A stretch of DNA of 64,000 nt. It comes from Candidatus Multivoradales bacterium. Lineage in GTDB: Bacteria; Acidobacteriota; Thermoanaerobaculia; Multivoradales; J023. The notes under the pieces were generated by a model. The model ran no database searches, had not been told where the DNA came from, and saw only the letters and a list, made by a program, of their open reading frames with translations. A program made the position numbers and the translations under genes. Location of the stretch: assembly GCA_965248925.1 (NCBI GenBank), contig CBDFLE010000006.1, positions 3,456,001 through 3,520,000 of the forward strand, written 5' to 3'. Shown here piece by piece: positions 35,687 to 64,000 of this stretch (within the stretch, counting starts at the first letter, position 1; every line of letters starts with the position of its first letter).

Positions 35687-36388
35687 ATGCGCCGAAGATC
35701 CTGCCTCAGTACCGTATATCTCCTACCTCAGAGATGGCAGATTTTGCCTCTCGCCCTCTTCATGCTCGGCCTCTTCACGGTCCTGCCGCTGACCGCGCAA
35801 CTCCCCCCGAGCCACCAGCGCGGAGTGACCGCCGACACCGCCTACCAGATTGGCGACCTGGATCAGATCAATCTCTTCAACGGCAGCCTGACCGTATCTC
35901 TACCGATCGGCATCACCTATCCGGTCGGCCCGTCCCTGAGCTTCAGCCTGACCGCCTCGTACAGCTCCGGTGGCTGGGAGTACGATGAGAATCACCAATG
36001 TCAAGACATCAATCCACCCTTCGCGCTGCGTACCTACAGCCTGCCGATCCAGGATCTCAAGACGCAGGCCGGCTTCGGCTGGAGAGTCAGCCTCGGAGAG
36101 CTGATCGCGCCACGTAACAGTCCGACGACAACGCCTGAGATTTACGTCGATCCAAGTGGCGGCGAGCACAGGTTTTATACCGAGCTGCATCCCGGCGGTT
36201 TTCCAGCGACACCGCAGCCCAGCACCTGGTTCACCAACGACAGTACCTATTTGCGTCTACGCAAGCGCAATCCGGGGGTGTGCGAGCTGCCGTCTGGCAC
36301 CTTTGTCGATCAGAGCTGCTACACGGTAGAATTTTCTGGCGGCGAGCTGCACGAGTTCCATAACTACGCCTCAGTCGGCGATCTCTGA
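35687..36388 (+). CDS. N-terminal part of the Rhs/YD protein (signal peptide), ended by an in-frame TGA
   Basis: Signal-like N-terminus ending LPLTA; DQINLFNGSLTVSLPIG...GFGWRVSLG is a typical Rhs N-terminal region; in frame with 36401. Confidence 0.8.
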   Translation: MRRRSCLSTVYLLPQRWQILPLALFMLGLFTVLPLTAQLPPSHQRGVTADTAYQIGDLDQINLFNGSLTVSLPIGITYPVGPSLSFSLTASYSSGGWEYDENHQCQDINPPFALRTYSLPIQDLKTQAGFGWRVSLGELIAPRNSPTTTPEIYVDPSGGEHRFYTELHPGGFPATPQPSTWFTNDSTYLRLRKRNPGVCELPSGTFVDQSCYTVEFSGGELHEFHNYASVGDL

Positions 36389-36400
36389 CGCCTGACCCGG

Positions 36401-39400
36401 ATGGAGGATCGCTTCGGCAATTGGATCAATGTGCGCTATGCCAACGATGGCGACTGGACATTGACCGACAGCCAAGGGCGCACTCACACGGTGGATTTTG
36501 TCGGTGGCAGAGTCGCCACCGTGAGGCTCGAAGCCTTCGGCAGCCAAAGCAACTCGACCTTCCTCTTTCAGTACCGCACCGAAACTCTAGAACGGCAGTT
36601 CGGTTTCCGCCCCGGCTGCGTGCCGATAGCCGAGCACACCCTCACCACCCAGGTGCTCGACCGGGTGGTGTTGCCCGACGGTTCGTTCTACGAGATGGAC
36701 TACCTGACTGTCGACAACCTGCTCTCGGGCGGCTTGTCGAAGCTGCGCTTGCCCACCGGCGGCGCCTACGGCTACGACTACCAGCTCTTCCCCTTCCAAA
36801 CCCAGCTGGCCGACCTCTTCCACGCTCCCGATTGGGGCACGGTGGCGCGGGGAGTCAAGAGCAAGCATCTCTTCCTCGACGACGGCGACACCACCCCCTA
36901 CGCCACCTGGAGCTACACCTACGACACCGCAAACCCGCAAGCCCCCGGCGATCCGCTGGGCCACCCCTGCTTCCACTCGATGAAAGTGACTGATCCGCTG
37001 GGCTTCGAGACGGTGGGCTATTTCTCCACCGTCGGCGCCAACAATCGCTGGTCCTACGGCCTGCCCTACACCTACTGCGATCCCATCAGCGGCAGCTTCT
37101 CAGAAGCCGGTCCCTTCCTCTCTCAAGAGCTTTTCGACGCTGGAGGCGTCAAGCTGCGCTCCATCTTCGTCGAGTTCGACAGCGATGGCCGCGACGCCGG
37201 CAACTACAACGAGAAAGCCCACCGCTTGCGCTACCGCAAGGAGACCTTCCACGACGACGGCGGCAAGGTCCGCGAAGTCACCTTCTCGGACTTCGATGGC
37301 CTGGGCCACTTCCGCACCATGACCACCGGCGGCAGCTTCGGCGCCGCCGACGTGCGCACCAGCAGCACCACCTACAACGCCAACCCCGACGACAGCTCGA
37401 TCGACCCGGCAACCGATCTCGTGCTGCCAAGCCACAACGCGCGCTGGATCTTGGAGACCTGGGACGAGCAGTCGGTGAGCGAAGGCGGGACCACCGAGAA
37501 AGCCGAGTTCTGCTTCAGTAGCACCACCGGCTTCCTCGAACGCCGCCGCCAGCTGGCTGGCAGCAGCCGTCAGAGCCGCGACGTGGTGAGCCTCCTCACC
37601 TCGACCGACGGCTTCGTCACCGGCGAGCGGGTCTATGGCGGCGACACCCAGAACCTCGGCACCGGCTCCTTGTGCAGCCTCGGCTTGTCCGGCCCGACCT
37701 ACCGCACCGACCACGTCTACGCCAGCGGCAGCCTGCGCAAGTCGACGGCGGTGGACTGCACCGGCACCGCGATCCTCACCCTGGCCGACTACGACATCGA
37801 CTCAGACACCGGCCTGGTGGCCACCAGCCGCGACGCGGCCGGCCTGGGCACCAGCTTCACTTACGATCGCTTGGGCCGCTTGACCGGCCAGCGCCCGGCC
37901 GAGCTGGGCTGGACCCAGTGGACCTACACCCTGCCCACCACCGCCAACCCCAGTCTTGCCCCCAAGCTCACCGAGCAACAGTGCCAGCCCTTCCAGACCT
38001 CCTGCAGCGGCACCGATCTGATGAGCTTCCGCGAGCACCGCTACGACGGCCTCGGCCGGCGGCTGCAAGAAACCGTGCGCATCCCCATCGCCAACGCTGG
38101 CCAGACCGAGCTCTGGCATCGCTACACGACCTGGAACCCACGTCACTGGAAGACGGACGAGTCGGTGTGGACCACCGCCTCAGCGGCCGGCGAAAGCCGG
38201 CGCACGACCTACCTCGCCTACGACCGCTTCGGCCGCCCCGGCCGGGTCAAGCCGCCAGAACAGCCGGCGACCTTCTTCACCTACCAGGGCGACCGGGTGC
38301 AGACCCGGCGCTTCAAAGTGCAGCTGACCAGTGGCCAGCAGGACACCTACGTCACCGAGATCATGGACGGCCAGGGCCGTCTGGCCGAGGTCTGCGAGGG
38401 CAGTTCCGCCGCCTGGTCTGGCAGCTGTGGTGGTGGCGGTCTGCTGACCCGCTATTCCTATGACGATGGTGGCAGACTGACCAAAGTGTGCCAGAACCTC
38501 AGCGGCTCGACCTGCGGCCAGACCCGCTTGTTCAGCTATGACGGTCGCGGTTTCCTACTCTCCGAGACCCATCCCGAGATCGGACCCTCGGGCAACGGCC
38601 GCATCGATTACCGCTTCGACGCCGGCGGCAACGCCACCTCCAAAGATCTGATCGGCAGCACCGCCTTCGATCTGAGCTTCGATTTCGACGCCGCCGGCCG
38701 ACTGATCAGAGTCCTCGAATCGAGCAATGGCGCGGGGAGCACCCCGCGTCTGCAGAAGCAGTTCCGCTACGCCCGCACCAACTCTGGCAGCGACCACCGG
38801 GCCGGGAAGCTGGTGCAGACCGTGCGCCACAACTGGGTCGACATTCAGAGCCCCCTGGCCCCCGAGCCCGGCTCCCTCGACGTCAAGCTCTCCGAGAGCT
38901 TCCGCTACACCGGTCGTCAGGGCCTGATGTCGGAGAAGCAGACCCGCTACCAATTCTTCGCCGGCAACTACGCCTTCACCACCGGCTTCGCCTTCGACAC
39001 CCAGGGCAATTTGTCACAACTCGATTACCCCAGCTGTCAGCACGCCGACGGTGGCTGTGCCACCAACGATCCGCAGCGCACAGTGAATTTCAACTACGAG
39101 AAGGGTATGCTCAGGTCCGTGCCTGGATTCGCCAACAACCTCACCTACCAGAGCGGTGGCATGCTGCATCAGCTCGCCCACAGCGATGGTGTAGTCGACA
39201 GCCAAGAAGTCAGCAGCTTGAACGGCCTCGCCCGGCCGCACCAGCTGACCACCTCTGCGGGCTGGAGCAGCGGTAACTTCGCCTACGACGGAGCTGGAAA
39301 TATCTCCGCCATTGGCAACTTGGCGTACCGCTATGACCGCCTCGGCAGGTTGATCTCCGGCCAGACCTCCGTCGGTGCCACCCTCTTCACCCAGACCGCG

Positions 39401-40768
39401 AGCTTCGACAATTTCGGCAACATCCAGCAGCTATCAACACCCGGCTTCGCGGCTCTCAATCTCAACCCCAGCGCCACCACCAACCGCCTCGGCCTCTCGG
39501 GCGCTCAGTACGACGCGGCCGGCAATCTGACCGACATCACCCTCGGCAGCGAGAGCTTCGACTACGCCTTCGACGGCGCCAACATGATGAAGCACCTGCG
39601 CTCGAACACCGATCAAGCGCGGGTCTTCATCTACAACGCCAGCGACGAGCGGATCCTCACCTTCGACTGCTTCGGCCCCGGCGCCACCAGCACTTGCACC
39701 ACCCAGCCCGCCAGCCTCACCTGGACCCTACGCGGTCTCGGCAACGAAGTCCTGCGAGTCTACGATCAGCCAGCTGGCGGCGCCTTCAGCTGGAGTCGAG
39801 ACTACGTCCATCGCGGCGGGCAGCCCCTCGCCACCATCGAGCCCGAGGGTAGCGGTGGCGAGATGACGTCGCATCTCCATCTTGATCACCTGGGCACACC
39901 CCGGCAGATCACCCGAGGGGGTCAGCAGGTGGCGTTGCACAACTACTTTCCCTTTGGTCAAGAGGCGACCAGCGCGGAGGCTGACGAGATCCAGCTGAAA
40001 TTCACCGGTCATGAGCGGGACAAGACCGGGACCGGGGCGAGGAGCGAGCTGGACTACATGCATGCGCGGCATTGCAGTCCGGTGGTGGGGCGGTTCTTGA
40101 GTGTGGACCCGGCGAAGTCCGCCAAGCCCAGCGCGCCGGGAAGCTGGAACCGCTATTCCTATGCGGGGAACAACCCGATCAACGAGATCGACCCCAATGG
40201 GCGAGAAAGCCGTGCGGCGATGGCTCTCGAACAAGATATACAGCGCTTGATGCGGGGCGAGATCACCCAGGAGCAGTACATTGAGAACATCAATGCTCGG
40301 GGAATGGGAGCACTGTTTGCTGCCAGCCTTCTCTCGCCAGTCGACGAGACGACTCTTGTTGTCGCTGTTACTCGAAAAGCACTTCCTAGTGTTGGGTCAA
40401 AGCTGTCTGCTGTCTTTGCTCGACTTGGTAAGGTCTTTCAACGGGGATCGCGCGGAGGAGCAAAGGGGGCAGCGAGCGTTGACGACCTGCTTCGGGCTGG
40501 CCAGCAACTGGATAGAAATGGACTTAGCAGAGCTGGGCGCTCTCTACAGAAGCACGGAGACAGAGCAGACAGCGTTTTTCCACGGTCAACGGGCAATGCA
40601 GCTGCAAGGAACGATCAAGGACAACAGATCCTTGAAGAGATCTTGAACAGCTCGAACCAGACTACTCGGGCAAATCGCCTCGGTGGACGGGATATTTTCG
40701 ATACTGCCAGTGGGCGCGGAGTACGCTTCGACGGAGATGGGCAGTTCATAGGATTCCTAGATCCATGA
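36401..40768 (+). CDS. rhs: Rhs/YD-repeat polymorphic toxin, main body with core and C-terminal toxin
   Basis: Many YDxxGR repeats; core HLDHLGTPR...YFPFG...KFTGHERD...GRFLSVDP...PINEIDPNGR; tip AGRSLQKHG...GRGVRFD..GQFIGFLDP (predicted nuclease-type). Confidence 0.93.
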   Translation: MEDRFGNWINVRYANDGDWTLTDSQGRTHTVDFVGGRVATVRLEAFGSQSNSTFLFQYRTETLERQFGFRPGCVPIAEHTLTTQVLDRVVLPDGSFYEMDYLTVDNLLSGGLSKLRLPTGGAYGYDYQLFPFQTQLADLFHAPDWGTVARGVKSKHLFLDDGDTTPYATWSYTYDTANPQAPGDPLGHPCFHSMKVTDPLGFETVGYFSTVGANNRWSYGLPYTYCDPISGSFSEAGPFLSQELFDAGGVKLRSIFVEFDSDGRDAGNYNEKAHRLRYRKETFHDDGGKVREVTFSDFDGLGHFRTMTTGGSFGAADVRTSSTTYNANPDDSSIDPATDLVLPSHNARWILETWDEQSVSEGGTTEKAEFCFSSTTGFLERRRQLAGSSRQSRDVVSLLTSTDGFVTGERVYGGDTQNLGTGSLCSLGLSGPTYRTDHVYASGSLRKSTAVDCTGTAILTLADYDIDSDTGLVATSRDAAGLGTSFTYDRLGRLTGQRPAELGWTQWTYTLPTTANPSLAPKLTEQQCQPFQTSCSGTDLMSFREHRYDGLGRRLQETVRIPIANAGQTELWHRYTTWNPRHWKTDESVWTTASAAGESRRTTYLAYDRFGRPGRVKPPEQPATFFTYQGDRVQTRRFKVQLTSGQQDTYVTEIMDGQGRLAEVCEGSSAAWSGSCGGGGLLTRYSYDDGGRLTKVCQNLSGSTCGQTRLFSYDGRGFLLSETHPEIGPSGNGRIDYRFDAGGNATSKDLIGSTAFDLSFDFDAAGRLIRVLESSNGAGSTPRLQKQFRYARTNSGSDHRAGKLVQTVRHNWVDIQSPLAPEPGSLDVKLSESFRYTGRQGLMSEKQTRYQFFAGNYAFTTGFAFDTQGNLSQLDYPSCQHADGGCATNDPQRTVNFNYEKGMLRSVPGFANNLTYQSGGMLHQLAHSDGVVDSQEVSSLNGLARPHQLTTSAGWSSGNFAYDGAGNISAIGNLAYRYDRLGRLISGQTSVGATLFTQTASFDNFGNIQQLSTPGFAALNLNPSATTNRLGLSGAQYDAAGNLTDITLGSESFDYAFDGANMMKHLRSNTDQARVFIYNASDERILTFDCFGPGATSTCTTQPASLTWTLRGLGNEVLRVYDQPAGGAFSWSRDYVHRGGQPLATIEPEGSGGEMTSHLHLDHLGTPRQITRGGQQVALHNYFPFGQEATSAEADEIQLKFTGHERDKTGTGARSELDYMHARHCSPVVGRFLSVDPAKSAKPSAPGSWNRYSYAGNNPINEIDPNGRESRAAMALEQDIQRLMRGEITQEQYIENINARGMGALFAASLLSPVDETTLVVAVTRKALPSVGSKLSAVFARLGKVFQRGSRGGAKGAASVDDLLRAGQQLDRNGLSRAGRSLQKHGDRADSVFPRSTGNAAARNDQGQQILEEILNSSNQTTRANRLGGRDIFDTASGRGVRFDGDGQFIGFLDP

Positions 40769-41019
40769 AGCGGGATGAGTTCTCAGCTGGCCATTTCAGC
40801 GTGATGATTGCCAGCGATCTGGATCACGAGAAGGTTTACGCAGAGATCTACTGTGATGACAAGTTTGTGGCGCTCGTGAGCCAGGAGCATGGCCTTGAGC
40901 ACAAAATGTTAGAGGTGCCAGGGCCTGGGCTTGTGGAAGAACAAATCTCTCGGGAGGTGGATCTCAAGGGTTTTCAGCACGCTCTTGAGCTAGCCGCGAG
41001 AAAGCTGCACGGCGAGTAG
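40765..41019 (+). CDS. Putative immunity protein for the main Rhs tip
   Basis: Small acidic ORF with ATGA overlap directly after the toxin. Confidence 0.8.
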   Translation: MKRDEFSAGHFSVMIASDLDHEKVYAEIYCDDKFVALVSQEHGLEHKMLEVPGPGLVEEQISREVDLKGFQHALELAARKLHGE

Positions 41020-41057
41020 GCCGCGTTGGCCAACCTTTGACAGTAGCTCGCCATCAT

Positions 41058-41084: not shown

Positions 41085-41462
41085 TCACTGGTGGAGCACT
41101 TCTTCGATCTGGTGCTTCTTGATGTAGGCGTCGATAAGGGAGGTGACGACGTGGCGATCATCGTCGCTCATCCGCTCGACCGCTTCGAACTGGCGTAGCA
41201 ACTCCCGATCCCGCAAGGCAGCCCCACGGGCTGCATCCCCATCGAGATCATCCCGCAGTAGAAAATCGATCGAGACGTCGAGAACATCGGCGAGCCTGAC
41301 GGCAGTTTCGGCGTTGGGCATGGCTTGGCCAATCTCATACTTGCCTACATGGCGACCGTGGATGCCGACCCGTTTGCCGAACTCGTCCTGGGACCATCCG
41401 CGCTCTTTGCGCAGCTTGCGGAGCTTCTGGCCGAAGCTGGGGGCGTCTGTAGTCATCTCCAT
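41085..41462 (-). CDS. XRE-family repressor (type A)
   Basis: FGQKLRKLRKERGWSQDEFG...KYEIGQAMP...LADVLDVSIDFLL. Confidence 0.9.
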   Translation of the reverse strand: MEMTTDAPSFGQKLRKLRKERGWSQDEFGKRVGIHGRHVGKYEIGQAMPNAETAVRLADVLDVSIDFLLRDDLDGDAARGAALRDRELLRQFEAVERMSDDDRHVVTSLIDAYIKKHQIEEVLHQ

Positions 41463-41667
41463 CCGTTGCCTCTCGCTATGAATCTCCGCAAATTCTACAG
41501 CGCAAGCACCTCGCCATCAAGGGAAATGGAGTCTCGGGGCAGAGTTCTTACTTGTAAAACCACGTCTATGCGCTATATAATCGAGTCAATCGATGCGTAT
41601 GGTGCTCGCTATGAAAACGAGCCCATCAGCTACAACAGAAAGACAGAATCTTGCCGGAGGATCTCCA

Positions 41668-41964: not shown

Positions 41965-42181
41965 GTCGAGAGCTGAGCGGCATCTGACGATCTCTACCCT
42001 GCACGAGCCCCGCGCACCGCACTACATCAACGGTCCGTGCTCGGTGCGGCTTGTGCCGTTTGTGCGGATGCGGGGGGCTTGGCTGGAAGCAGCGGGGTTT
42101 CGCTGTGGGGAGCGGCTGCGGGTGGAGGTCGAGCAGGATCGTTTGGTGCTTACTCCGGTGGGATCGGAGGCGGCACGGTGA
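41957..42181 (+). CDS. SymE-like protein 2
   Basis: PFVRMRGAWLEAAGFRCGERLRVEVEQDRLVLT; GTG start after AGGAG. Confidence 0.8.
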   Translation: MSESRAERHLTISTLHEPRAPHYINGPCSVRLVPFVRMRGAWLEAAGFRCGERLRVEVEQDRLVLTPVGSEAAR

Positions 42182-45100
42182 GCAGGATTCCGGAAGCGGA
42201 AGTGGAGCGACTAAAGCGAGAAGTATCGGTGGAACGCCTGGTCCTGGCCCGCGGTGTAGAGCTGAAACGGCACGGGGCGGACCTGCTGGGGCTGTGTCCG
42301 TTTCACGACGACCACGAGCCGTCGCTGGTGATCTCGCCAAAGAAGAACCTGTGGCACTGCCTGGGCGCCTGCCAGGCGGGTGGCTCGGTGATCGATTGGG
42401 TGATGCGAGATCGCGGGGTGTCGTTTCGCCACGCGGTCGAGCTGCTGCGCTCGGATCTGCCGGCGGCGGCGGTCACTGAGGCGCGGCCTTCGGCGCCGGC
42501 TCTGCCTTCGCCGGTGGTGGCGGACGTCGAGGACGCGGAGTTGCTCGGCCAGGTCGTCGGCTACTACCACGAGGCTTTGAAGGAGGGCCCGGAGGCGCTG
42601 GCTTATCTGGAGAGCAGAGGGCTGAAGCACCCGGAGATGATCGAGCATTTCAGGCTTGGCTTCGCCAACCGGACGCTGGGCTATCGACTGCCATCGAAGC
42701 AGCTGAAGGCGGGTAAGGAGATGCGGGGTCGATTGCAGAAGCTCGGCGTGCTGCGCAAGTCGGGTCATGAGCACTTCAACGGCTCGATCGTCTTTCCGGT
42801 TTTCGATTCAACAGGCCAGGTGGTGGAGATCTACGGGCGCAAGATCACACTAAATCTTCGCAAGGGGACGCCCTTGCATCTCTATCTGCCGGGTCCACAT
42901 CGAGGGATCTTTAATGCGGAAGCTCTGGTGGCCTCGACCGAGATCATCCTCTGCGAGTCGCTGATCGACGCTCTGACTTTCTGGTGTGCGGGTTACCGTA
43001 ACGTCACCAGCGCCTACGGCATCCAGGGTTTCACCGCGGAGATGCTGGCAGCCTTCGGTGGCCACGGAGTCGAGCGGGTGCTGATCGCCTACGACCGTGA
43101 CGATGCCGGCGAGAAGGCCGCCGGGAAGCTGGCCGAGAAGCTGGTGGGTGCCGGGATCGACTGCTACCGAATCCAATTTCCGCGTGGCATGGATGCCAAC
43201 GAGTACGCGCTGAAGGTGACCCCGGCGGCGAAGTCGCTGGGGGTGGTGATCCGCAAAGCACAGTGGCTCGGCAAAGGCAAGCCGCCGGGCGTGAAACCGG
43301 GGTTTGGGCCAACAGCTGGCCTAATCGCGCCAACGGTACGGCCAAACACAGCCGCAGAGGCGGTAATGGCTCCACCAACAGAGCAGCTGACATCATCGAA
43401 TACCGCCGGAGAGGCGGTATTGGCACTGCCCGCCCCGGCCGAAGCCTCCCCACTGCCCGCACCGCCTCCGCCAGATATGCCGGCTGAGGTGCGCGACCAG
43501 GAGGTGGTCTTGTCGCTCGGCGATCGCCGCTACCGCATTCGCGGTCTGCCGAAGAATCTGGCCTACGACGTGCTCAAGGTCAACGTCCTGGCGTCGCGGG
43601 GCGACGCCTTCCACGTCGACACTTTCGATCTCTACGCGGCGCGGCCGCGGGCGGTGTTTCAGCGGGCGGCAGCCGCTGAGCTGGGGGTCGAGGAGCAGGT
43701 GGTCAAGAAGGATCTGGGCAAGGTGCTGCTGAAGCTCGAGGAGCTGCAGGACGAGCAGATCCGCTCAGCACTCGAGCCGCAGTCGACGGCGGTGGAGCTG
43801 TCAGAGGGAGAGAAGGAAGCGGCGCTTGAGCTGCTGCGCTCACCAGATCTCTTGGTGCGCATCCTCGCGGACTTCGAGCGCTGCGGGGTGGTGGGCGAGG
43901 AGGTCAACAAGCTGATGGGCTACCTGGCGTCGACCTCGCGTTTCCTGGAACGGCCGCTGGCGGTGGTGGTGCAGTCCAGCTCAGCGGCCGGTAAGTCGGC
44001 GCTGATGGAGGCGGTGCTGTCGCTGATGCCAGGTGAGCAGCAAGTGAAGTACTCGGCGATGACCGGGCAATCGCTGTTCTACATGGGCGAAACGGATCTG
44101 CAGCACAAGATCCTGGCGATCGTCGAGGAGGAGGGGGCCGAGCGGGCTAGCTACGCCTTGAAGCTGCTTCAGTCGGAGGGCGAGCTGACGATTGCCTCGA
44201 CCGGCAAGGATGCTTCAACGGGCAAGCTGGTGACGCACGAGTACCACGTCGAAGGGCCGGTGATGATCTTCTTGACGACCACGGCAATCGACATCGATGA
44301 AGAGCTTTTGAATCGCTGCTTGGTGCTCTCGGTGGACGAGGCGCGAGAGCAGACGCGGGCGATTCACCGGCTGCAGCGGCAGCGGCGGACGCTGGAGGGG
44401 CTACTCTCGCGCACCCGGCGCGACGGGGTGATGGCGCTGCACCAGAACGCGCAGCGGCTGCTGCGGCCGCTGGCGGTGGTCAATCCCTTTGCTCCGGAAC
44501 TTACCTTTCTCGATACGCAAATCCGCACCCGCCGGGACCACGAGAAGTACCTGACGCTGATCGACGTGATTGCTCTTTTGCATCAATACCAGCGAGAGGT
44601 GAAGCTGGCGGTGGTCGACGGGCGAGAGGTGGAGTACGTCGAAGTGGTGGCCACAGACATCGAGACAGCCAACCGCCTGGCGCACGAAGTCTTGGGGCGC
44701 TCGCTCGATGAGCTGCCGCCGCAGACGCGGCGCCTGCTGGGGCTGATCGACGAGATGGTCAGCGAAGCCTGTGAGGCGCTGGCGATGGATCGGCCGGACT
44801 ACCGTTTCAGCCGGCGGGCGGTGCGCGAGCACACCGGCTGGGGCAATACGCAGCTGAAGCTGCACCTACGCCGTCTTGAGGAGTTTGAGTATCTGCTGGT
44901 GCATCAGGGCGGGCGGGGGCAGAGCTTTGTCTACGAGCTGGTTTACGTGGCCAGCGACGAGCCGGAGCGGCCGCGACTGCCGGGGCTGATCGAGGTCGAA
45001 ACACTCAGGTACGACGAAAAGAAGTCGGGGTCTGAAGCTGAGAAGTCGGGGCCAAGTCGGCCCCAAGTCGGGGGGGTGTCGGGGGGTGGTCGGGGTGCAG

Positions 45101-45243
45101 TTTCCCAAGCAGAATCAACAACTTCGGCCGGAAATCGTGGAGTTTCGGCAAAAAACGCATATAAGGGGGTGCGAGAAAACGGCCCGTCATGTCGTAAATC
45201 TGGGCCTCGTACCGGCGGCTCGGCGGCGGTCGAGGGGGCCTGA
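42178..45243 (+). CDS. CHC2 zinc-finger / TOPRIM primase fused to a P-loop ATPase (replication protein)
   Basis: CPFHDD...WHCLGAC; ESLIDA and YDRDDAG; Walker A-like SSSAAGKS; GTGA coupling to the SymE-like gene. Confidence 0.9.
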   Translation: MSRIPEAEVERLKREVSVERLVLARGVELKRHGADLLGLCPFHDDHEPSLVISPKKNLWHCLGACQAGGSVIDWVMRDRGVSFRHAVELLRSDLPAAAVTEARPSAPALPSPVVADVEDAELLGQVVGYYHEALKEGPEALAYLESRGLKHPEMIEHFRLGFANRTLGYRLPSKQLKAGKEMRGRLQKLGVLRKSGHEHFNGSIVFPVFDSTGQVVEIYGRKITLNLRKGTPLHLYLPGPHRGIFNAEALVASTEIILCESLIDALTFWCAGYRNVTSAYGIQGFTAEMLAAFGGHGVERVLIAYDRDDAGEKAAGKLAEKLVGAGIDCYRIQFPRGMDANEYALKVTPAAKSLGVVIRKAQWLGKGKPPGVKPGFGPTAGLIAPTVRPNTAAEAVMAPPTEQLTSSNTAGEAVLALPAPAEASPLPAPPPPDMPAEVRDQEVVLSLGDRRYRIRGLPKNLAYDVLKVNVLASRGDAFHVDTFDLYAARPRAVFQRAAAAELGVEEQVVKKDLGKVLLKLEELQDEQIRSALEPQSTAVELSEGEKEAALELLRSPDLLVRILADFERCGVVGEEVNKLMGYLASTSRFLERPLAVVVQSSSAAGKSALMEAVLSLMPGEQQVKYSAMTGQSLFYMGETDLQHKILAIVEEEGAERASYALKLLQSEGELTIASTGKDASTGKLVTHEYHVEGPVMIFLTTTAIDIDEELLNRCLVLSVDEAREQTRAIHRLQRQRRTLEGLLSRTRRDGVMALHQNAQRLLRPLAVVNPFAPELTFLDTQIRTRRDHEKYLTLIDVIALLHQYQREVKLAVVDGREVEYVEVVATDIETANRLAHEVLGRSLDELPPQTRRLLGLIDEMVSEACEALAMDRPDYRFSRRAVREHTGWGNTQLKLHLRRLEEFEYLLVHQGGRGQSFVYELVYVASDEPERPRLPGLIEVETLRYDEKKSGSEAEKSGPSRPQVGGVSGGGRGAVSQAESTTSAGNRGVSAKNAYKGVRENGPSCRKSGPRTGGSAAVEGA

Positions 45244-46316
45244 TGCCGCGCCGTGGCGAGCGCAAGATCCGCCTCTTGCCGGGCAATCCAACCGACCCTC
45301 GGGGCTTCGCGGTGATGGCGGGTCAGTACCTGGAGTGGATGGCGATCAAGAACTACTCTCCACGAACCGTTGAGAACCGGCATCTATACCTCTCGTTTCT
45401 CATCGCATGGTGTGAAGAGCGTGGGGTGTCGCGGCCGTCGGAAGTGACCAAGCCGATCCTGGAGCGCTACGCCAGGTGGCTCTACCACTACCGCAAGCCT
45501 GGGGACGGGCGGCCGCTGTCTTTCCGGGCTCAGCACTCGCGGCTGGTGCCGGTAAGGGCCTTCTTCAAATGGGCGGCTCGGGCCAACCACCTGCTCTACA
45601 ACCCGGCCTCGGAGCTGGAGCTACCGAAGCTGGAGCACCGGCTGCCGGCGGCGGTGCTGACCGCCTCTGAAGCCGACCAGGTGCTCAACCAGCCCGACAC
45701 CACGGAGCCGCTCGGGATGCGCGACCGAACAATCCTTGAAGTCTTCTACTCCACGGGCATGCGCCGGGCTGAGCTGATCGGCCTCGGCCGTTACGATCTC
45801 GACATCGAGCGCGGGACGGTGATGGTGCGCCAGGGCAAGGGTAGGAAAGATTGGATGATCCCGATCGGCGAGCGGGCGTTGGCCTGGATCGATCGCTACG
45901 TCACTGCGGTACGGCCGTCGCTGGTGGTCGAGCCGGACGGCGGGCCGCTCTTTCTCACCAACCAGGGGACGCCGTTTGCGCCGTCGCGAATGACTCAGCT
46001 GGTGCGCGGCTACGTGCTCGCCGCCGATCTCGGCAAGTCGGGCGCTTGCCATCTCTTCCGCCACACGATGGCGACGCTGATGCTCGAAGGTGGTGCGGAT
46101 ATCCGCTTCATTCAGCAGATGCTCGGCCATGCCAAGCTGGAGACGACGCAGATTTACACTCAGGTATCGATCCGCAAACTGAAGTCGATCCACTCGGCAA
46201 CCCATCCGGGCGCGAAGCTAGGGCGGCGGGTGGCACCGCCGACAGAAGAAGACGGCAGCGATGAAGTGACCGCCGAGGACTTACTCGATGTAGTCGAGAC
46301 CGAGGCGGAGGACTGA
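45243..46316 (+). CDS. XerC/XerD-like tyrosine integrase
   Basis: Catalytic set TGMRRAEL, GKG, HLFRH, LGH, TQIYT; TGATG coupling. Confidence 0.93.
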   Translation: MPRRGERKIRLLPGNPTDPRGFAVMAGQYLEWMAIKNYSPRTVENRHLYLSFLIAWCEERGVSRPSEVTKPILERYARWLYHYRKPGDGRPLSFRAQHSRLVPVRAFFKWAARANHLLYNPASELELPKLEHRLPAAVLTASEADQVLNQPDTTEPLGMRDRTILEVFYSTGMRRAELIGLGRYDLDIERGTVMVRQGKGRKDWMIPIGERALAWIDRYVTAVRPSLVVEPDGGPLFLTNQGTPFAPSRMTQLVRGYVLAADLGKSGACHLFRHTMATLMLEGGADIRFIQQMLGHAKLETTQIYTQVSIRKLKSIHSATHPGAKLGRRVAPPTEEDGSDEVTAEDLLDVVETEAED

Positions 46317-46721
46317 CCCCCGCCCGAAGCGGTCCGGGTCTGCGGGTCCCGCGCTGCGGCCGGCTGCGCCGTCCTCCGTTCGCGGGCCACGCAGCCCTCG
46401 GCAGTATTTTTTCGTCACCCCAGCCCGCCCCGGCCCGAGCATCTGCGATCCACCACCTGAGCCCTCCGATCACCGGCCCGGCGCGGGGCTTCAAGTAGTC
46501 CAAGAGAAGACTCTTCGAAAGCTCACCCCAAGCTCCGCCGGGGCGTGTGTCCCTCCGGTCGCTGCGCTCCCTCCGGGCACGGGCCAGCCGCTCCGCAAGC
46601 CGCGCGCCACCTGGGTCCCTCCTCGGACCTCCCAGGTGTCACGCGGCTTGCATGGGTCGCTGTCCGATAGTGCGCGCCCTATCCGACCTGGCCCTCACAC
46701 GCCCCGGCTCCGGGCCTACGG

Positions 46722-46751
46722 CCTTTCCATAACGCGTGCATTATGGAAACT
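46722..46751. other. dif/cer-like recombination site (11-8-11)
   Basis: CCTTTCCATAA-CGCGTGCA-TTATGGAAACT; second copy at 54479-54508; absent from unit 3. Confidence 0.55.
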
Positions 46752-47206
46752 TGGGGTGAGCACTCCGCGAGCCTGCGATGGTCAGCGGCTTCGGAACCAC
46801 GCCCCGCTCCGGGCCTCCTTGCCGAGATCCACCAGCCAGCACTGCGACGGCTCGGCCCGGCCCCGTCCGCCCCCTCAAGGGGGCTCCCCATCCTCCTCCC
46901 AAGACCCGCCCTGCGTCGTGGCCTCCGTACCCTGCGCGCGGCGCCCTGCGGTCGCCGTGCTCGGCTCCGGCCCCGCCGCCACCACGCCCCCAACGTGCAG
47001 ATTGGTTTGGCGGCTGCGCCGCCGGCACCAAACTGCCGGAAAGACCCGCGCTCGCTCCGACGACCAGCCCGACGAAAACGACCTAAGAAAACACCCACTG
47101 CCCGAAGAAAGCGGCCTAAGAAAACCGCATCCCGCCTCCGCACCAACCACCCTTCCTCCTTTAGCCGCTGTCTTCGAGCGCCACCCGCGGCGTAGAATGG
47201 CCCGGC

Positions 47207-48283
47207 ATGAGGCAGGCAGCTAAAGGAAGAAGCACTTGGACGATGGCGCTCGGGCTGGTCGTCGCGCTCCTGGCGGTGACGATGCCGGCAACAGCGATCG
47301 CGCCGATCTCCGAGTCGAGCTACGCCGAAACTCGCCTCTGGACCTTCGAGCACCAAGACCCCGCCGGCAGTAGGGCCGAGCGAGGCTTAAGTAGAACAGG
47401 CATAGAGGGTTACCAGCTCTCAAGCTGGAAACCGCGTCGGGCTGTCCCCTTCACCCGAGGGGGTCAGCAGGTGGCGTTGCACAACTACTTTCCCTTTGGT
47501 CAAGAGGCGACCAGCGCGGAGGCTGACGAGATCCAGCTGAAATTCACCGGCCATGAGCGGGACAAGACCGGGACCGGCAGCCGCTCCGAGCTGGACTATA
47601 TGCATGCTCGGCATTGCAGCCCGGTGGTGGGGCGGTTTTTGAGTGTGGATCCATCTCTGGGTAGCCGGTCCTCACCACAGAGTTGGAATCGCTTCTCTTA
47701 CGTCAGCAACAGTCCAATCAACCAGGTAGACCCGGACGGAAGGCTTGGGTTTCTGGTAACTGCATTTCTTGGCGGAGTCGTAGATGTTGGGATTCAAATT
47801 GCGAGCAACGCGCTTTCAGGGGAAGAGCTCACAACAGGCGTAGCCGGGGCTTTCGTCACCGGAGCAGTGGCTGGTGCCACAGGTCTTGGGCTATTGAAGG
47901 TGGCTGGTAGGGGAGCGAAGCTCGTAGGAGCCGTAAGAAATGCAAAGAAACTGAAGAAGTCAGCTGCTGCTGCTGACGCAGCTAGAGCGGGCGCAAAGGG
48001 GGCAGCGGAGGTTTCGCAGAAGGTTGCAAACCAGGCTAACCACATCTTCGGTTCAAAGAACCTCGCAAAACATAGGCTCGGCGGGGTTCTCGACGCCTTC
48101 GGCGGAGACCAGGTCGCGGCGTTACGATCCATAGAGTCAAGTGCACAGAAGCTCGCAGCCAGCGGGGCTATCGAGGGTGTTTTCCGAACAGTGGTGAGGG
48201 TTGGAGAACAATCGGTCATGGTGAGGGGCCGTGTGATTGATGGTGTCGTGAACATCTCCACTGCCTTCATCCCGATCCCATAG
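47207..48283 (+). CDS. Signal-peptide leader fused to Rhs core and toxin tip 2a
   Basis: Leader MALGLVVALLAVTMPATA joins TRGGQQVALHNYFPFG at the 47451 junction; PINQVDPDGR; tip ending VRGRVIDGVVNISTAFIP. Confidence 0.85.
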   Translation: MRQAAKGRSTWTMALGLVVALLAVTMPATAIAPISESSYAETRLWTFEHQDPAGSRAERGLSRTGIEGYQLSSWKPRRAVPFTRGGQQVALHNYFPFGQEATSAEADEIQLKFTGHERDKTGTGSRSELDYMHARHCSPVVGRFLSVDPSLGSRSSPQSWNRFSYVSNSPINQVDPDGRLGFLVTAFLGGVVDVGIQIASNALSGEELTTGVAGAFVTGAVAGATGLGLLKVAGRGAKLVGAVRNAKKLKKSAAAADAARAGAKGAAEVSQKVANQANHIFGSKNLAKHRLGGVLDAFGGDQVAALRSIESSAQKLAASGAIEGVFRTVVRVGEQSVMVRGRVIDGVVNISTAFIPIP

Positions 48284-48287
48284 GAGT

Positions 48288-48647
48288 ATGCGGATGAGCA
48301 CGGAGAGCCTGGAATCTGCTGTCATCAGCAGAATGTTGGATGACCCTGAACTTTCACCTTGCCTTCGTTCGCTCGACCCCTTGTCACTGGTGATGTCGGA
48401 GCGGAACTTCAGCCAAGTAGGGTTCATCACCAGCTTCGCTCGGACTTCTGGAACAAAGCTGTTCGGTGACGACATCTCCATGCGGTGGGGAAAGGTTATT
48501 GTGCGCATCAATTCCGAGATTGATGTGGACTTCGTCGTCTATGTGGATGACGGATACCTGACCGGAATTGAAGGCTGCACCTTCGGCGGCGAGTTGTGGC
48601 CCTCCGAAATAGAAGCGTTCGAGTTGACTGATCTGCCGGATGGTTGA
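48288..48647 (+). CDS. Putative immunity protein 2a
   Basis: Directly follows the toxin; acidic; ERNFSQVGFITSF...FVVYVDDGYLTGIEGCTFG. Confidence 0.8.
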   Translation: MRMSTESLESAVISRMLDDPELSPCLRSLDPLSLVMSERNFSQVGFITSFARTSGTKLFGDDISMRWGKVIVRINSEIDVDFVVYVDDGYLTGIEGCTFGGELWPSEIEAFELTDLPDG

Positions 48648-48951
48648 TCGTCGTGCCGGCGGAGTGCCAGCGGTCACGCCGCTTCGAATCCAGGAGCACG
48701 ACGGTCACCTTCAAACGTTGGGCCTGTCTTCGATCGGGAAGTTGGAACTCGCGGTAGCGGTGTCGCCGGGAGTCTCGGCCGAGACAGCGCGGCAACTTCT
48801 GCACTCAGCAGCTTCCTACATGGTTTCGGTCAACTACCGGCCCGAGGCGGGGGAAATCCTGTGCTATGAGGGCCAGTGCTACCGGCTGGAGCCGGTGCGG
48901 GGTGGCCTCCTGCTGCTGCGTCCGGTGATTGGCAGTGAGGCCGCCAGCTAA
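48640..48951 (+). CDS. Hypothetical protein, possible accessory immunity
   Basis: Overlaps the immunity stop; LQTLGLSSIGKLEL motif; a variant occurs in unit 3. Confidence 0.5.
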   Translation: MVDRRAGGVPAVTPLRIQEHDGHLQTLGLSSIGKLELAVAVSPGVSAETARQLLHSAASYMVSVNYRPEAGEILCYEGQCYRLEPVRGGLLLLRPVIGSEAAS

Positions 48952-48958
48952 GCCGCGA

Positions 48959-49330
48959 TCAGGGGGCAGCGGTGGCTGATTCCTGGGTGACGAGGTCAAC
49001 GAACTTCTTCTTGGTCAGCAGGCCATCGATGATCTTGATGACGGCAGCCTTTTCCTCGGGGTCGAGGCGTTCGAGCAGCTCCATGCGCTGGGCGAGAGGC
49101 TGATCTTCGAGCCGGACGGGTCGAAACTCTCCCTCTTCTTCATTCAGCAGAAAGTCGGTCGTCACCTCGAACTCTGAGGCGAGCTTGCGCAGCAGGTCAA
49201 TGGACGGCTGGTAGCGGCCGTTCTCAAGCCGGCTGATGTGGCCAGTGCTAACCCCGAGGCGCTTGCCGAGTTCGCCCTGGGCCCACCTGTGCTCAGCGCG
49301 GAGCTTTCGGATCTTCTCTTGAAGGGTCAT
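48959..49330 (-). CDS. XRE-family repressor (type B)
   Basis: LQEKIRKLRAEHRWAQGELG...ISRLENGRYQPS; ATG at 49330. Confidence 0.9.
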   Translation of the reverse strand: MTLQEKIRKLRAEHRWAQGELGKRLGVSTGHISRLENGRYQPSIDLLRKLASEFEVTTDFLLNEEEGEFRPVRLEDQPLAQRMELLERLDPEEKAAVIKIIDGLLTKKKFVDLVTQESATAAP

Positions 49331-49428
49331 TGATCGTCGATTTCCTGGCCTCTTGGGCCGAATTTCCACTAATTCTAAGCGCATACGGTGATTTGCGCAA
49401 GTAATTCGGGCGAGAACGTACGCTCTGC

Positions 49429-49457
49429 TTGACGATGATAGGCGCATGCGTTATTAT
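49429..49457 (+). promoter_or_regulatory. Putative promoter of the symE-primase-integrase operon
   Basis: TTGACG-17bp-TATTAT; repeated in unit 3. Unit 1 has TTGTAA-18bp-TATAAT at 41552-41581. Confidence 0.5.
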
Positions 49458-49538
49458 TTGTGCATGAGAGCAGCAAGGTGCCGTGGTCGCAACCGTTAAC
49501 TGCTCCAAGCGTGATGCGAAAACTGGAGGGAAATCTCA

Positions 49539-49835
49539 ATGACCGAGCACAAGCTAACAATCTCCGCCCTGTACCGCCCCGGCTGGCACGTCTTGCCCAG
49601 ATCGGCACGGCTGCCATTGCTGCAGATTGCAGGTCCGTGGCTCCAGGACGCTGGCTTCTACCCTGGTGCGCGAGTGCGGGTCGACGTGGTGGGCGAAGGG
49701 CGCCTGGTGGTGACGCGGGTGGAAGAAGGCGAGGAAGAGAGGGAAATGCAGCCGGTGGTGTGGGTGCCAGCGGATCAGATCGGCCGGATTGATGAGGTCT
49801 CGGCAAGTCGCCTGGCAGGAGCAGCCTGTGTCTGA
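49539..49835 (+). CDS. SymE-like protein 1 (unit 2)
   Basis: Near-identical to 41668-41964. Confidence 0.75.
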   Translation: MTEHKLTISALYRPGWHVLPRSARLPLLQIAGPWLQDAGFYPGARVRVDVVGEGRLVVTRVEEGEEEREMQPVVWVPADQIGRIDEVSASRLAGAACV

Positions 49836-54963: not shown

Positions 54964-56040
54964 ATGAGGCAGGCAGCTAAAGGAAGAAGCACTTGGACGA
55001 TGGCGCTCGGGCTGGTCGTCGCGCTCCTGGCGGTGACGATGCCGGCAACAGCGATCGCGCCGATCTCCGAGTCGAGCTACGCCGAAACTCGCCTCTGGAC
55101 CTTCGAGCACCAAGACCCCGCCGGCAGTAGGGCCGAGCGAGGCTTAAGTAGAACAGGCATAGAGGGTTACCAGCTCTCAAGCTGGAAACCGCGTCGGGCT
55201 GTCCCCTTCACCCGAGGGGGTCAGCAGGTGGCGTTGCACAACTACTTTCCCTTTGGTCAAGAGGCGACCAGCGCGGAGGCTGACGAGATCCAGCTGAAAT
55301 TCACCGGTCATGAGCGGGACAAGACCGGGACCGGCAGCCGCTCCGAGCTGGACTATATGCATGCTCGGCATTGCAGCCCGGTGGTGGGGCGGTTTTTGAG
55401 TGTGGATCCATCTCTGGGTAGCCGGTCCTCACCACAGAGTTGGAATCGCTTCTCTTACGTCAGCAACAGTCCAATCAACCAGGTAGACCCGGACGGAAGG
55501 CTTGGGTTTCTGGTAACTGCATTTCTTGGCGGAGTCGTAGATGTTGGGATTCAAATTGCGAGCAACGCGCTTTCAGGGGAAGAGCTCACAACAGGCGTAG
55601 CCGGGGCTTTCGTCACCGGAGCAGTGGCTGGTGCCACAGGTCTTGGGCTATTGAAGGTGGCTGGTAGGGGAGCGAAGCTCGTAGGAGCCGTAAGAAATGC
55701 AAAGAAACTGAAGAAGTCAGCTGCTGCTGCTGACGCAGCTAGAGCGGGTGCAAAGGGGGCAGCGGAGGTTTCGCAGAAGGTTGCAAACCAGGCTAACCAC
55801 ATCTTCGGTTCAAAGAACCTCGCAAAACATAGGCTCGGCGGGGTTCTCGACGCCTTCGGCGGAGACCAGGTCGCGGCGTTACGATCCATAGAGTCAAGTG
55901 CACAGAAGCTCGCAGCCAGCGGGGCTATCGAGGGTGTTTTCCGAGCGGTTGTAAGGGTAGGGGAACACTCCGTCACGGTTAAAGGACGTGTGATTGATGG
56001 TGTAGTCAACGTCGGCTCTGCCTTCATCCCGATTCGATAG
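54964..56040 (+). CDS. Leader fused to Rhs core and toxin tip 2b
   Basis: Same protein as 47207-48283 except the last ~30 aa. Confidence 0.85.
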   Translation: MRQAAKGRSTWTMALGLVVALLAVTMPATAIAPISESSYAETRLWTFEHQDPAGSRAERGLSRTGIEGYQLSSWKPRRAVPFTRGGQQVALHNYFPFGQEATSAEADEIQLKFTGHERDKTGTGSRSELDYMHARHCSPVVGRFLSVDPSLGSRSSPQSWNRFSYVSNSPINQVDPDGRLGFLVTAFLGGVVDVGIQIASNALSGEELTTGVAGAFVTGAVAGATGLGLLKVAGRGAKLVGAVRNAKKLKKSAAAADAARAGAKGAAEVSQKVANQANHIFGSKNLAKHRLGGVLDAFGGDQVAALRSIESSAQKLAASGAIEGVFRAVVRVGEHSVTVKGRVIDGVVNVGSAFIPIR

Positions 56041-62576: not shown

Positions 62577-63638
62577 ATGAGGCAGGCAGCTAAAGGAAGA
62601 AGCACTTGGACGATGGCGCTCGGGCTGGTCGTCGCGCTCCTGGCGGTGACGATGCCGGCAACAGCGATCGCGCCGATCTCCGAGTCGAGCTACGCCGAAA
62701 CTCGCCTCTGGACCTTCGAGCACCAAGACCCCGCCGGCAGTAGGGCCGAGCGAGGCTTAAGTAGAACAGGCATAGAGGGTTACCAGCTCTCAAGCTGGAA
62801 ACCGCGTCGGGCTGTCCCCTTCACCCGAGGCGGACAGCAGGTGGCGTTGCACGGCTACTTCCCGTTTGGTCAGGAGGCGACCAGCGCCGCACAAGATGAG
62901 GTTGTGCTGAAGTTCACCGGGCACGAGCGAGACAAGACCGGGACCGGGGTGAGGAGCGAGCTGGACTACATGCATGCGCGGCATTGCAGTCCGGTGGTGG
63001 GGCGGTTCTTGAGTGTGGATCCATCTCTGGGTAGCCGGTCCTCACCACAGAGTTGGAATCGCTTCTCTTACGTCAGCAACAGTCCAATCAACCAGGTAGA
63101 CCCGGACGGAAGGCTTGGGTTTCTGGTAACTGCATTTCTTGGCGGAGTCGTAGATGTTGGGATTCAAATTGCGAGCAACGCGCTTTCAGGGGAAGAGCTC
63201 ACAACAGGCGTAGCCGGGGCTTTCGTCACCGGAGCAGTGGCTGGTGCCACAGGTCTTGGGCTATTGAAGGTGGCTGGTAGGGGAGCGAAGCTCGTAGGAG
63301 CCGTTAGAAATGCAAAGAAACTGAAGAAGTCAACTGCTGCTGCTGGCGCACCAAGAGCGGGCGCAAGGGGAACAAGGGTTGTTGATGACGCCATTTCAGG
63401 CTTGCGTGCTGGGCGAAGTCCCGGTGTCAGAGTGGTTGAGTCGGCTGATGACTTGGAGGGCTTGTTTGGCCGCCTCAGTCGCGGCGGCACATCAGTCGAA
63501 GGCACAAAGTTCCCAGGCCAGCTTGTGAAGCTGCCCGATGGTACGACGGTCGGATTGCGCGCCGGCTCGAAGTCCGGGGGGCCAACCATCGACATCAAGC
63601 TGCCTGATGGAACCTTGCGCAAGGTCCATGTCCAATAA
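62577..63638 (+). CDS. Leader fused to Rhs core and toxin tip 3 (candidate displaced original rhs 3' end)
   Basis: Core diverges right after TCACCCGAGG (HGYFPFGQEATSAAQDEVVLKF); tip LPDGTTVGLRAGSKSGGPTIDIK...KVHVQ (predicted nuclease-type). Confidence 0.85.
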   Translation: MRQAAKGRSTWTMALGLVVALLAVTMPATAIAPISESSYAETRLWTFEHQDPAGSRAERGLSRTGIEGYQLSSWKPRRAVPFTRGGQQVALHGYFPFGQEATSAAQDEVVLKFTGHERDKTGTGVRSELDYMHARHCSPVVGRFLSVDPSLGSRSSPQSWNRFSYVSNSPINQVDPDGRLGFLVTAFLGGVVDVGIQIASNALSGEELTTGVAGAFVTGAVAGATGLGLLKVAGRGAKLVGAVRNAKKLKKSTAAAGAPRAGARGTRVVDDAISGLRAGRSPGVRVVESADDLEGLFGRLSRGGTSVEGTKFPGQLVKLPDGTTVGLRAGSKSGGPTIDIKLPDGTLRKVHVQ

Positions 63639-64000
63639 TGAGCTTTCGAAACTGCGTCGATGATGTCTTGAAACGTGGCTTGGATGACTGGATCCAAGCC
63701 GCTGAGATCGCTTCGATAGCCCGGACCGCCGGCAAAGCAACGAGCGAAGACGGAGTCCGTGACCTCTCACTCCGGATTTTTCGGGAGCTACTCGGGCGAA
63801 ACTTGATGGATGTCGGGATGGTTACGGAGACAGGATTCACGGCTTGGGAGATTCCTGTCGATCAGGCCCTTCAGCGGATCGAAAGTGATTGGCGAGCCTT
63901 GCCCAAGGGGCCGGATCTCGGCGAGATTTGCTGGCTCAACCTCACCGAGGAAGGGTCCGTGCAGGCGGACGAGCTTTGGTCGAAGAGCAGGTCCTCTTGA
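63638..64000 (+). CDS. Putative immunity protein for tip 3
   Basis: TAATG coupling to the toxin; GLDDWI...FTAWEIPVDQALQRIESDW...ICWLNLTEEG. Confidence 0.8.
   Translation: MSFRNCVDDVLKRGLDDWIQAAEIASIARTAGKATSEDGVRDLSLRIFRELLGRNLMDVGMVTETGFTAWEIPVDQALQRIESDWRALPKGPDLGEICWLNLTEEGSVQADELWSKSRSS

Follow-up and report, generated by a model that had tools for sequence, protein, structure and literature searches.

A signal-peptide-like leader at the ends of tandem integrative elements is joined in frame to Rhs toxin tips in an acidobacterial locus

Polymorphic toxin loci are thought to diversify mainly via homologous recombination with promoterless orphan cassettes, and in Rhs toxins the core-end motif PxxxxDPxGL marks the start of the variable C-terminal tip. 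To our knowledge, the arrival of new tips and the persistence of old immunity genes are poorly understood. Here, we analyze a stretch of 64,000 nucleotides (nt) from Candidatus Multivoradales bacterium (contig CBDFLE010000006.1, forward-strand positions 3,456,001 to 3,520,000; the window), in which an rhs locus spanning 28 kb consists of an armed rhs gene followed by three tandem units. An earlier, sequence-only reading of the window had proposed that the end of each unit supplies a translation start and a signal-peptide-like leader, in frame, to whichever toxin tip lies downstream.

The closest analogues in principle are vsa of Mycoplasma pulmonis (recombinase HvsR) and the R64 shufflon (Rci), in which a 5' segment with promoter, start and signal peptide is joined in frame to alternative 3' segments; in-frame joining over a recombinase site appears to be common to them and to the present locus. 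Those systems invert resident segments, whereas in the window a mobile, apparently self-replicating element would integrate and excise, and two 5' acceptors, the Rhs shell and a short leader, would swap partners reciprocally. In integrons, which comprise attI, the Pc promoter and short attI-encoded leader open reading frames (ORFs) aiding cassette translation, a tyrosine recombinase likewise puts promoterless cassettes behind a fixed expression signal, and arrays store earlier cassettes. In contrast, the "cassette" here is an entire element of 7.6 kb that itself encodes an integrase and a primase and is inserted in frame within a protein-coding gene; the units measure 7.5-7.8 kb, and neither attC-type folded sites nor an IntI platform were seen, attC not having been specifically sought. 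In e14 or phage 21 in icd, and in many tRNA-integrating elements, attP carries a substitute 3' end and the target stays intact. The elements described here resemble them in that attP would supply a new 3' end for the target gene, but there a near-copy keeps the function and the displaced stub is dead, whereas here the new end is a new toxin and the displaced end would be joined to a leader.

Orphan rhs-CT/immunity arrays of Salmonella, E. coli and Serratia, as far as the accounts in PMC3967940, PMC3150448 and PMC7043789 go, also feature secondary or silent tips with a core stub and an immunity gene after the armed gene, and their tips are likewise exchangeable with the armed gene. They differ from the present locus, on the same accounts, in three respects: here a complete integrative element lies between successive tips; exchange would take place at a short site-specific core instead of by homologous recombination; and start and signal peptide are element-encoded, instead of an internal promoter and start lying within the rhs core. 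A classical orphan rhs-CT, a core stub and tip with no start of its own, comes right after the preceding immunity gene; ahead of each stub in the window there are instead a 7.6-kb element and a leader whose ATG is in frame. The sequence-only reading had further stated that orphan tips usually lack translation starts; this is not universal, since Salmonella orphan tips are, in the relevant part of PMC7043789, expressed from internal promoters and internal start codons. Tyrosine recombinases have been linked to toxin-immunity loci before: the survey of Zhang and Aravind, in the part concerned with polyimmunity, finds XerC/D genes adjoining such loci (PMC3482391), and in rAID/polyimmunity loci XerC/D-like tyrosine recombinases are, as here, tied to the build-up of toxin-immunity genes (relevant parts of PMC3482391 and PMC12247911). 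Those loci gather defensive immunity genes without an armed toxin, and the corresponding sections of PMC3482391 describe neither an in-frame leader nor a tip swap. Open-access full texts, supplements aside, yielded no account of Rhs tips being replaced in frame by an integrase, nor of a leader encoded by an element, and the arrangement is probably new among recombinase-driven C-terminal swaps in polymorphic toxin loci.

The three units that follow the main rhs gene (7542, 7757 and 7613 nt, ~7.6 kb) each contain a cI/Cro-type helix-turn-helix (HTH) gene on the minus strand, one or two SymE/AbrB-like small genes, a DnaG-type primase gene (~1060 amino acids [aa]) and, at one end, a tyrosine integrase gene (Pfam Phage_integrase, E ~1e-36 in all three). 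The leaders are the integrase-proximal ends of these tandem integrative elements. As the sequence-only reading had noticed, every unit ends with an identical 82-codon leader: the three copies are identical over all 246 nt, with three-way identity over 47072-47460. The "mini-Rhs" ORFs of ~355 aa that it had delineated are likewise present, with lengths of 358, 358 and 353 aa, each starting MRQAAKGRSTWTMALGLVVALLAVTMPATAIAP; in each unit the leader runs into the last ~95 residues of the Rhs core (to DPDGR), after which come a tip and a short gene presumed to confer immunity. The features of this part of the locus are listed below.

35687..40768, plus strand: main armed rhs gene, ending in tip A, with a signal-peptide-like N-terminus MRRRSCL...LPLALFMLGLFTVLPLTAQ
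39909..39925, plus strand: putative attL core TCACCCGAGGGGGTCAG, inside the rhs core (codons ITRGGQ), where the cargo of element 1 (tip A) would begin
40765..41019, plus strand: presumed immunity gene for tip A, by position, 84 aa; its start overlaps the rhs stop
47207..47452, plus strand: leader copy 1, 82 codons, with charged n-region, hydrophobic h-region, ATA|IAP c-region and ~50 residues predicted to be unstructured
47439..47467, plus strand: attP-like junction GGGCTGTCCCC-TTCACCCGA-GGGGGTCAG, with imperfect inverted arms around the crossover region
47207..48283, plus strand: ORF of leader, Rhs core end (to DPDGR) and tip B, 358 aa
48288..48647, plus strand: presumed immunity gene for tip B, 119 aa (copy at 56051-56404)
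54964-55209, plus strand: leader copy 2, part of the following ORF, with the att core at 55208
54964..56040, plus strand: ORF of leader copy 2 and tip B', 358 aa
56051..56404, plus strand: presumed immunity gene for tip B', 117 aa
62577-62822, plus strand: leader copy 3, part of the ORF at 62577..63638
62821-62837, plus strand: att core at the third leader, GGCGGACAG, with 2 mismatches; the sole junction with a differing right arm
62577..63638, plus strand: ORF of leader copy 3 and tip C, 353 aa; candidate attR with a displaced chromosomal tip
63638..64000, plus strand: presumed immunity gene for tip C, continuing beyond the window

RHS shell repeats are recognizable in the main gene (Pfam RHS_repeat, E=7e-18 on 36401-40768). 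A Pfam search with the leader-fused ORFs gave no match, their Rhs content being the last ~95 core residues. The core-end motif is present in a DPxGR variant, as NPINEIDPNGR in the main gene and SPINQVDPDGR after the leaders, with divergence beyond it. The frame of the main rhs gene is broken at 36386-36388 by an in-frame TGA, within YD-repeat sequence (..VGDL*RLTRMEDRFGNW..) that would accommodate Trp; decay to a pseudogene, a sequencing error and read-through are all conceivable for this armed gene.

The junctions share a 17-nt att core, TCACCCGAGGGGGTCAG, at 39909, 47451, 55208 and 62821 (the last with 2 mismatches), i.e. four matches in the window compared to 0.30 expected. Imperfect inverted arms, CTGTCCCC and GGGGGTCAG, surround the core, and in a related locus described below (L004) both change together, to CTATCCCC and GGGGGGTAG. 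The same short core at the junctions, with imperfect inverted core-type sites, and an integrase at one end of each unit conform to the layout of integrative elements. Left of the core, GGGCTGTCCCCT is common to the three leader ends and is replaced by unrelated rhs sequence in the main gene; from the core onward, with an abrupt boundary, the leader junctions resemble the main rhs gene, 47451 corresponding to 39909, within codon F82. The junction had previously been placed at AVPFTR. In-frame joining across it stands, but the position has to be moved two residues to the left, AVP(F)|TRGGQQ, as the similarity starts at 47451; the frame predicts the junction-spanning peptide ...AVPFTRGGQQVALH....

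We read 39909 as a putative attL and 47451 and 55208 as attP-like joints from one element to the next. Between the immunity gene of tip A and the HTH gene of element 1 there are 66 nt, which leaves no room for a separate left end outside rhs. Since only the junction at 62821 has a differing right arm, we take it as a candidate attR, which would be followed by the original chromosomal tip. At the internal, attP-like junctions (47451 and 55208) each leader leads into the next element's own tip, in agreement with the earlier prediction that on an excised circle the leader would join the tip of its own element. The related proposal that the tips behind the leaders are displaced ones applies to the last leader-fused tip (62821 onward), the only possible displaced chromosomal one, and has to be abandoned for the other two, which are cargo of the next element.

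Diverged relatives of the leader were sought with a HMMER scan of the 82-aa sequence against 1.8 billion representative proteins (cut-off E<=1e-3), which gave 27 matches: 5 of the identical type, 1 fragment (71% identical), 3 unrelated repeat proteins and 18 diverged small proteins (90-262 aa, 29-58% identity). All 18 diverged homologues possess a hydrophobic N-terminal segment and the motif SYAETR(V/L)W.FE..PA (SYAETRVWGFE..PAG in its fuller form). Their junction reads ...VGYPLVPRG, with P-R/K-x in 18 of 18 and unrelated sequence beyond, and three of the C-termini match toxin families, namely CdiA_C (E=4e-13), a ribonuclease (E=6e-7) and Ntox10/EndoU. In a word-indexed search, 100% identical leaders were found in nine proteins on three contigs, two of them the window's own, with about nine different C-terminal ends. 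The predicted parts of a Sec type I signal peptide can be assigned in the window leader, with n-region MRQAAKGRSTWT (charge +3), h-region MALGLVVALLAV (Kyte-Doolittle 2.98) and c-region TMPATA|IAP. By a simple script, an 11-residue stretch with Kyte-Doolittle >=2.0 and an AxA-like site occur in 19 of 20 family members, the exception being N-terminally truncated, and the n-region charge ranges from +2 to +6 in members with a complete N-terminus. AlphaFold2, run on the family alignment, predicts a single helix at residues 9-25 (predicted local distance difference test [pLDDT] 72-84) and low confidence for the rest (mean pLDDT of the whole model, 54.9), a prediction that fits a signal peptide followed by an unstructured spacer. 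Leader frame and hydrophobic segment, whose loss in homologous elements would have spoken against the sequence-only reading, are thus both kept in the diverged homologues. The leader is not a shortened duplicate of the N-terminus of the main rhs gene, as BLASTP against the main Rhs protein gave no significant similarity (best E 2.0). ESM Atlas matches of 0.84-0.87 to small clusters labeled as Rhs-repeat lie below the meaningful level of 0.9 and were not used.

One scan of genome contigs with the leader motif returned four loci (L001-L004), labeled as three metagenome-assembled genomes of Acidobacteriota or Thermoanaerobaculia and one uncultured bacterium; L002 and L003 overlap and together contain three or more elements in tandem. 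Each of the four loci has an integrase homologue (82-85% identical to that of the window) ~1.0-1.4 kb upstream of the leader and in the same orientation, with a primase gene (72-75% identical) before it; where the sequence extends far enough, in three of the loci, there is also an HTH gene ahead of the primase. The att core of these relatives is located where the toxin domain begins and not within the Rhs core. At the left end of L001 lies an Rhs-type gene to which the element is joined at ...DNVPR|WTVDPSS, and the right-end leader passes into the same tip with ...SPVPR|WTVDPSS. A full tip follows in frame for 5 of 6 leader copies from the related loci and for all three of the window.

The phase in which the leader crosses the att core is not the same in all lineages, and in each it matches that of the target gene. 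Leader and main rhs gene of the window both take the core CCCRAGG in phase 1 (aCC CGA GGg = T R G), whereas phase 2 (CCA AGG = P R) is used by the L004 and L001-L003 leaders and by the main toxin gene of L001. In the corresponding alignment, GGGCTGTCCCCTT-CACCCGAGG-GGGTCAG of the window pairs with GGGCTGTTCCCCT-GTCCCAAGG-... of the relatives. The window leader is one nucleotide shorter between IEGY and the core, and its abandoned frame, ...SGCPLHPRG, resembles the ...VGYPLVPRG of the relatives. The simplest reading of these sequences would be that a 1-nt frameshift re-phased the leader when the family took a target in a different phase. Such a phase match is expected if reading through the junction matters, and it is the strongest single argument for the structural claim that start and leader are in frame with the tip.

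The same tip can moreover be found in both positions. In a leader-fused protein encoded on a 2,357,353-nt contig (P0005), residues 71-355 are identical (285/285) to the end of the window's armed Rhs protein, from TRGGQQ exactly; because of this identity, one and the same tip is seen in the shell position in the window and in the leader position elsewhere. Together with leader conservation, genomic context and phase matching, this observation supports the structural part of the sequence-only reading, i.e. that the element end provides a start and a signal-peptide-like leader in frame with the following tip. A small ORF with coding-like evolution and no Pfam family follows every tip, and its presumed immunity function is assigned by position. 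Tips B and B' differ at 4/4/15 first, second and third codon positions, and their presumed immunity genes at 14/8/26. Judged by these differences, the leader-fused tips and immunity genes look maintained as coding sequence, wherever they were located meanwhile. With an element-borne start and signal-peptide-like leader placed in frame before them, displaced tips are probably still genes, not dead remnants.

The tips themselves are modular (47740-48000 and proteins P0002-P0010). In several of them DPDGR, a hydrophobic Gly/Ala-rich stretch and a Lys/Ala-rich linker recur, and divergence sets in only after ..ARAGA(K/R)G; a second group diverges after ..QRGSRG..(K/R)G, where P0008 has GVPRG, the junction motif of the relatives' leaders. 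This pattern points to an additional, earlier site of exchange where the toxin domain begins.

A TAGAAT hexamer 8 nt before the ATG, pointed out in the sequence-only reading, is indeed present at 47193-47198, with copies at 54950-54955 and 62563-62568. It is the sole TAnAAT in 46317-47460, compared to 8 on the plus strand of the whole window, and a −10-like hexamer is found near the start in both clades (TAGAAT-N8-ATG in the window, TAGAAT-N9-ATG in L004 and TACAAT-N6/7-GTG in L001-L003). Such a spacing, 6-9 nt from hexamer to start codon, is that of leaderless mRNAs. Window and L004 DNA become alignable abruptly from ~70 nt before the ATG, with 70-83% identity over most of the leader and 33-57% further upstream. 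Hexamer and ATG are enclosed by an inverted repeat that is kept in L004 (4183-4263) and lies ~600 nt upstream of the leader in L001-L003; its RNA fold has −37.4 kcal/mol (z = −2.4) in the window and −46.8 kcal/mol (z = −1.9) in L004. We speculate that, given this predicted fold, the repeat might occlude the start on read-through transcripts of the integrase operon and not on transcripts begun within the loop. Two terminator-like sites were detected in 46200-48800, both on the minus strand. The repeats of this region are:

47067..47125, plus strand: two 26-nt direct repeats (GCCCGAnGAAAnCGnCCTAAGAAAAC), candidate arm-type recombinase sites in the P arm
47152..47232, plus strand: 17-nt inverted repeat CTTCCTCCTTTAGCCGC / GCAGCTAAAGGAAGAAG enclosing the −10-like hexamer and the ATG, with copies in the other units

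Based on these results, we suggest that the leader is likely to be a genuine and conserved coding module on the integrase side of a ~7.6-kb element that carries one toxin tip and its immunity gene, and whose integrase swaps tips in frame. The attP would lie within an ORF, such that the circle would read leader (start, Sec-type signal peptide and ~50 unstructured residues), att core and its own tip. Recombination of attP by the integrase with the same 10-17-nt core in the 3' part of a large Rhs gene would result in a reciprocal in-frame swap, in which the Rhs shell would gain the tip of the element and the leader would gain the previous tip or, in a tandem array, the tip of the next element. 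Transcription may begin at the element end and give a leaderless mRNA, as the −10-like hexamer 6-9 nt ahead of the start suggests. Architecture, att core, leader conservation, target phase matching and the occurrence of one tip in both positions are established by sequence comparison; from them we infer transcription, translation from M1, export and continued expression of the downstream immunity genes.

Several observations weigh against a leader that is selected as part of a toxin gene, and most of them would also be expected if its open frame were fortuitous, the region being an attP P arm with regulatory sequence that is kept because a recombinase or repressor binds it, and in which GC-rich DNA stays open and is annotated by gene callers. 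An open 82-codon frame is unremarkable in such DNA (1759 of 20000 mononucleotide shuffles; 334 of 642 82-codon windows in the adjacent gap), and the codon-position GC of the leader (0.58/0.61/0.72) is weakly coding-like compared to that of the primase and integrase genes (~0.66-0.70/0.46/0.77-0.81), so that the case rests on comparative evidence. There, copies of the window leader type say nothing on selection because all are 100% identical, and the substitutions between the window and L004 leaders are flat by codon position (23/22/20; 9 synonymous and 37 non-synonymous among 77 aligned codons); because of this flat pattern between clades, protein-level purifying selection is not demonstrated for most of the leader, and part of its conservation could be at the DNA level, e.g. 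for P-arm binding sites. Direct and inverted repeats of the att-arm type overlap the first codons, and the mature leader is predicted to be unstructured. A sigma-70 scan of 46200-48800 yielded 0 promoters, nor was a good −35 seen there by eye; no Shine-Dalgarno sequence was seen before leader M1, and database gene calls of leader copies start at M13, dropping the charged n-region. Furthermore, the terminal leader of L002 (9947-10189) stops 7 codons past the core (VPRGIPEASY*) and is followed by a gene for a 2001-aa surface-repeat protein and no tip; a leader can therefore exist without a tip. In L004, the integrase gene (2097-3172) is split over three frames while the downstream leader-tip ORF is intact, reflecting either a decayed element or an assembly error. 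Nevertheless, a fortuitous frame seems improbable to us. An open frame combined with an 11-residue hydrophobic stretch near the start (Kyte-Doolittle >=2.9) arose in 0 of 20000 shuffles, the n/h/c character of a signal peptide is kept in all but the truncated family member despite residue changes, and the frame over the att core was re-phased to a different target. Second codon positions are depleted in changes in the three within-clade comparisons only (28/4/20 summed, i.e. 4/52 at second positions, the pairs not being independent), and all leaders but the terminal one of L002 reach a full tip.

A leader that is translated for a purpose other than toxin delivery is, in our judgment, similarly doubtful. 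It might drive ribosomes through a displaced tip for the sake of immunity, or surplus toxin might be sent or anchored outside the cytoplasm, where nuclease tips would be harmless. Such a role would fit the recognizable tips, which are cytoplasm-acting nucleases (CdiA_C, ribonuclease, EndoU), the immunity gene starts that abut or overlap tip stops (40765/40768, 63638), the want of a predicted fold in the mature leader usable as a delivery domain, and the single N-terminal helix, which could equally be a membrane anchor. Yet the best-conserved part of the leader is its SYAETRVWGFE motif, unexpected in a mere translational spacer, and the immunity gene of tip B has its own upstream GGAG, so coupling is not required. 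Export for use and export for disposal are equally compatible with the sequences at hand. We give very little credence to an origin of the array by homologous recombination or tandem amplification between rhs core repeats, like that of classical orphan arrays, in which the leader-tip genes would be cargo of an element beside rhs. The ~200 nt of rhs core homology (88-94%) after every junction, and mosaic units whose 100% identical patches suggest gene conversion, would be in line with it. However, similarity begins abruptly at the same nucleotide in 4 of 4 sites, the same core and inverted arms occur in relatives whose tips have no rhs core homology, the HTH gene of element 1 follows immunity gene A too closely for a separate left end, and the right arm of the last site differs exactly as an attR should.

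The remaining parts of the elements are represented by the genes of element 1:

41085..41462, minus strand: cI/Cro-type HTH regulator (Pfam HTH_3, E=2e-16), by alignment a diverged allele of 48959-49447 and 56716-57204
42037..45243, plus strand: DnaG-type primase (zinc ribbon and Toprim), 1068 aa, with copies at 49908-53111 and 57665-60826
45243..46316, plus strand: tyrosine integrase, 357 aa (Pfam Phage_integrase, E=4e-36), with copies at 53111-54184 and 60826-61902

Related integrases number more than 7999. The primase had only distant matches in phages (<60% identity, ~32% coverage), and tblastn of the leader against plasmids gave no match; no known phage or plasmid relative was found. The integrase gene is followed by ~890 nt with no coding signal and flat codon-position GC (0.68-0.72). 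An ORF at 46636-47223, upstream of the leader, shares this flat codon-position GC and has no convincing similarity to an equally placed ORF of L002 (E=0.014 over 11 residues); it was treated as non-coding. Within this region, a block at ~46680-46830 (and copies), ~400 nt past the integrase stop, is kept in all five elements (window and L001-L004) and contains a palindrome with paired changes (TTTCCATAACGC/GCATTATGGAAA in the window, ACATAAC..GTTATGT in L002), which may be an operator or a small RNA hairpin; an Rfam scan of 40700-49600 at E<=1 gave no match. The units are mosaic (41661-64000), with stretches of 100% identity alternating with stretches of 60-96% and with unrelated segments after the integrase (~46260-46850), an alternation that indicates recombination among co-resident elements. 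Far to the left in the window, and unrelated to the rhs locus, lies a Mu-type transposase gene (rve and Mu-transpos_C_2; 1707-3281, minus strand); RND efflux operons at 19146-25019 and 27624-35492 occupy the region between it and the rhs gene.

In its most extended form, our proposal, which we regard as evenly poised between holding and failing, is that there is in Acidobacteriota a family of small, probably self-replicating elements with attP in a short gene for a secreted toxin. On integration into a large Rhs (or similar) gene, two expression platforms would trade their warheads reciprocally and in frame: the shell would be re-armed and the leader would adopt the displaced tip, keeping tip and immunity gene alive, and the leader would have been shifted by 1 nt on moving to a new target. 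The locus thus suggests a dedicated vehicle, i.e. a mobile element that brings tip and immunity gene, installs the tip in frame in a resident delivery gene and gives the displaced tip an expression platform. If this is true, a single mechanism would explain both the arrival and the retention of toxin and immunity modules, the locus would add a case of site-specific recombination that yields two functional fusion genes, and a defined att core with its integrase would be available for programmable in-frame C-terminal swapping.

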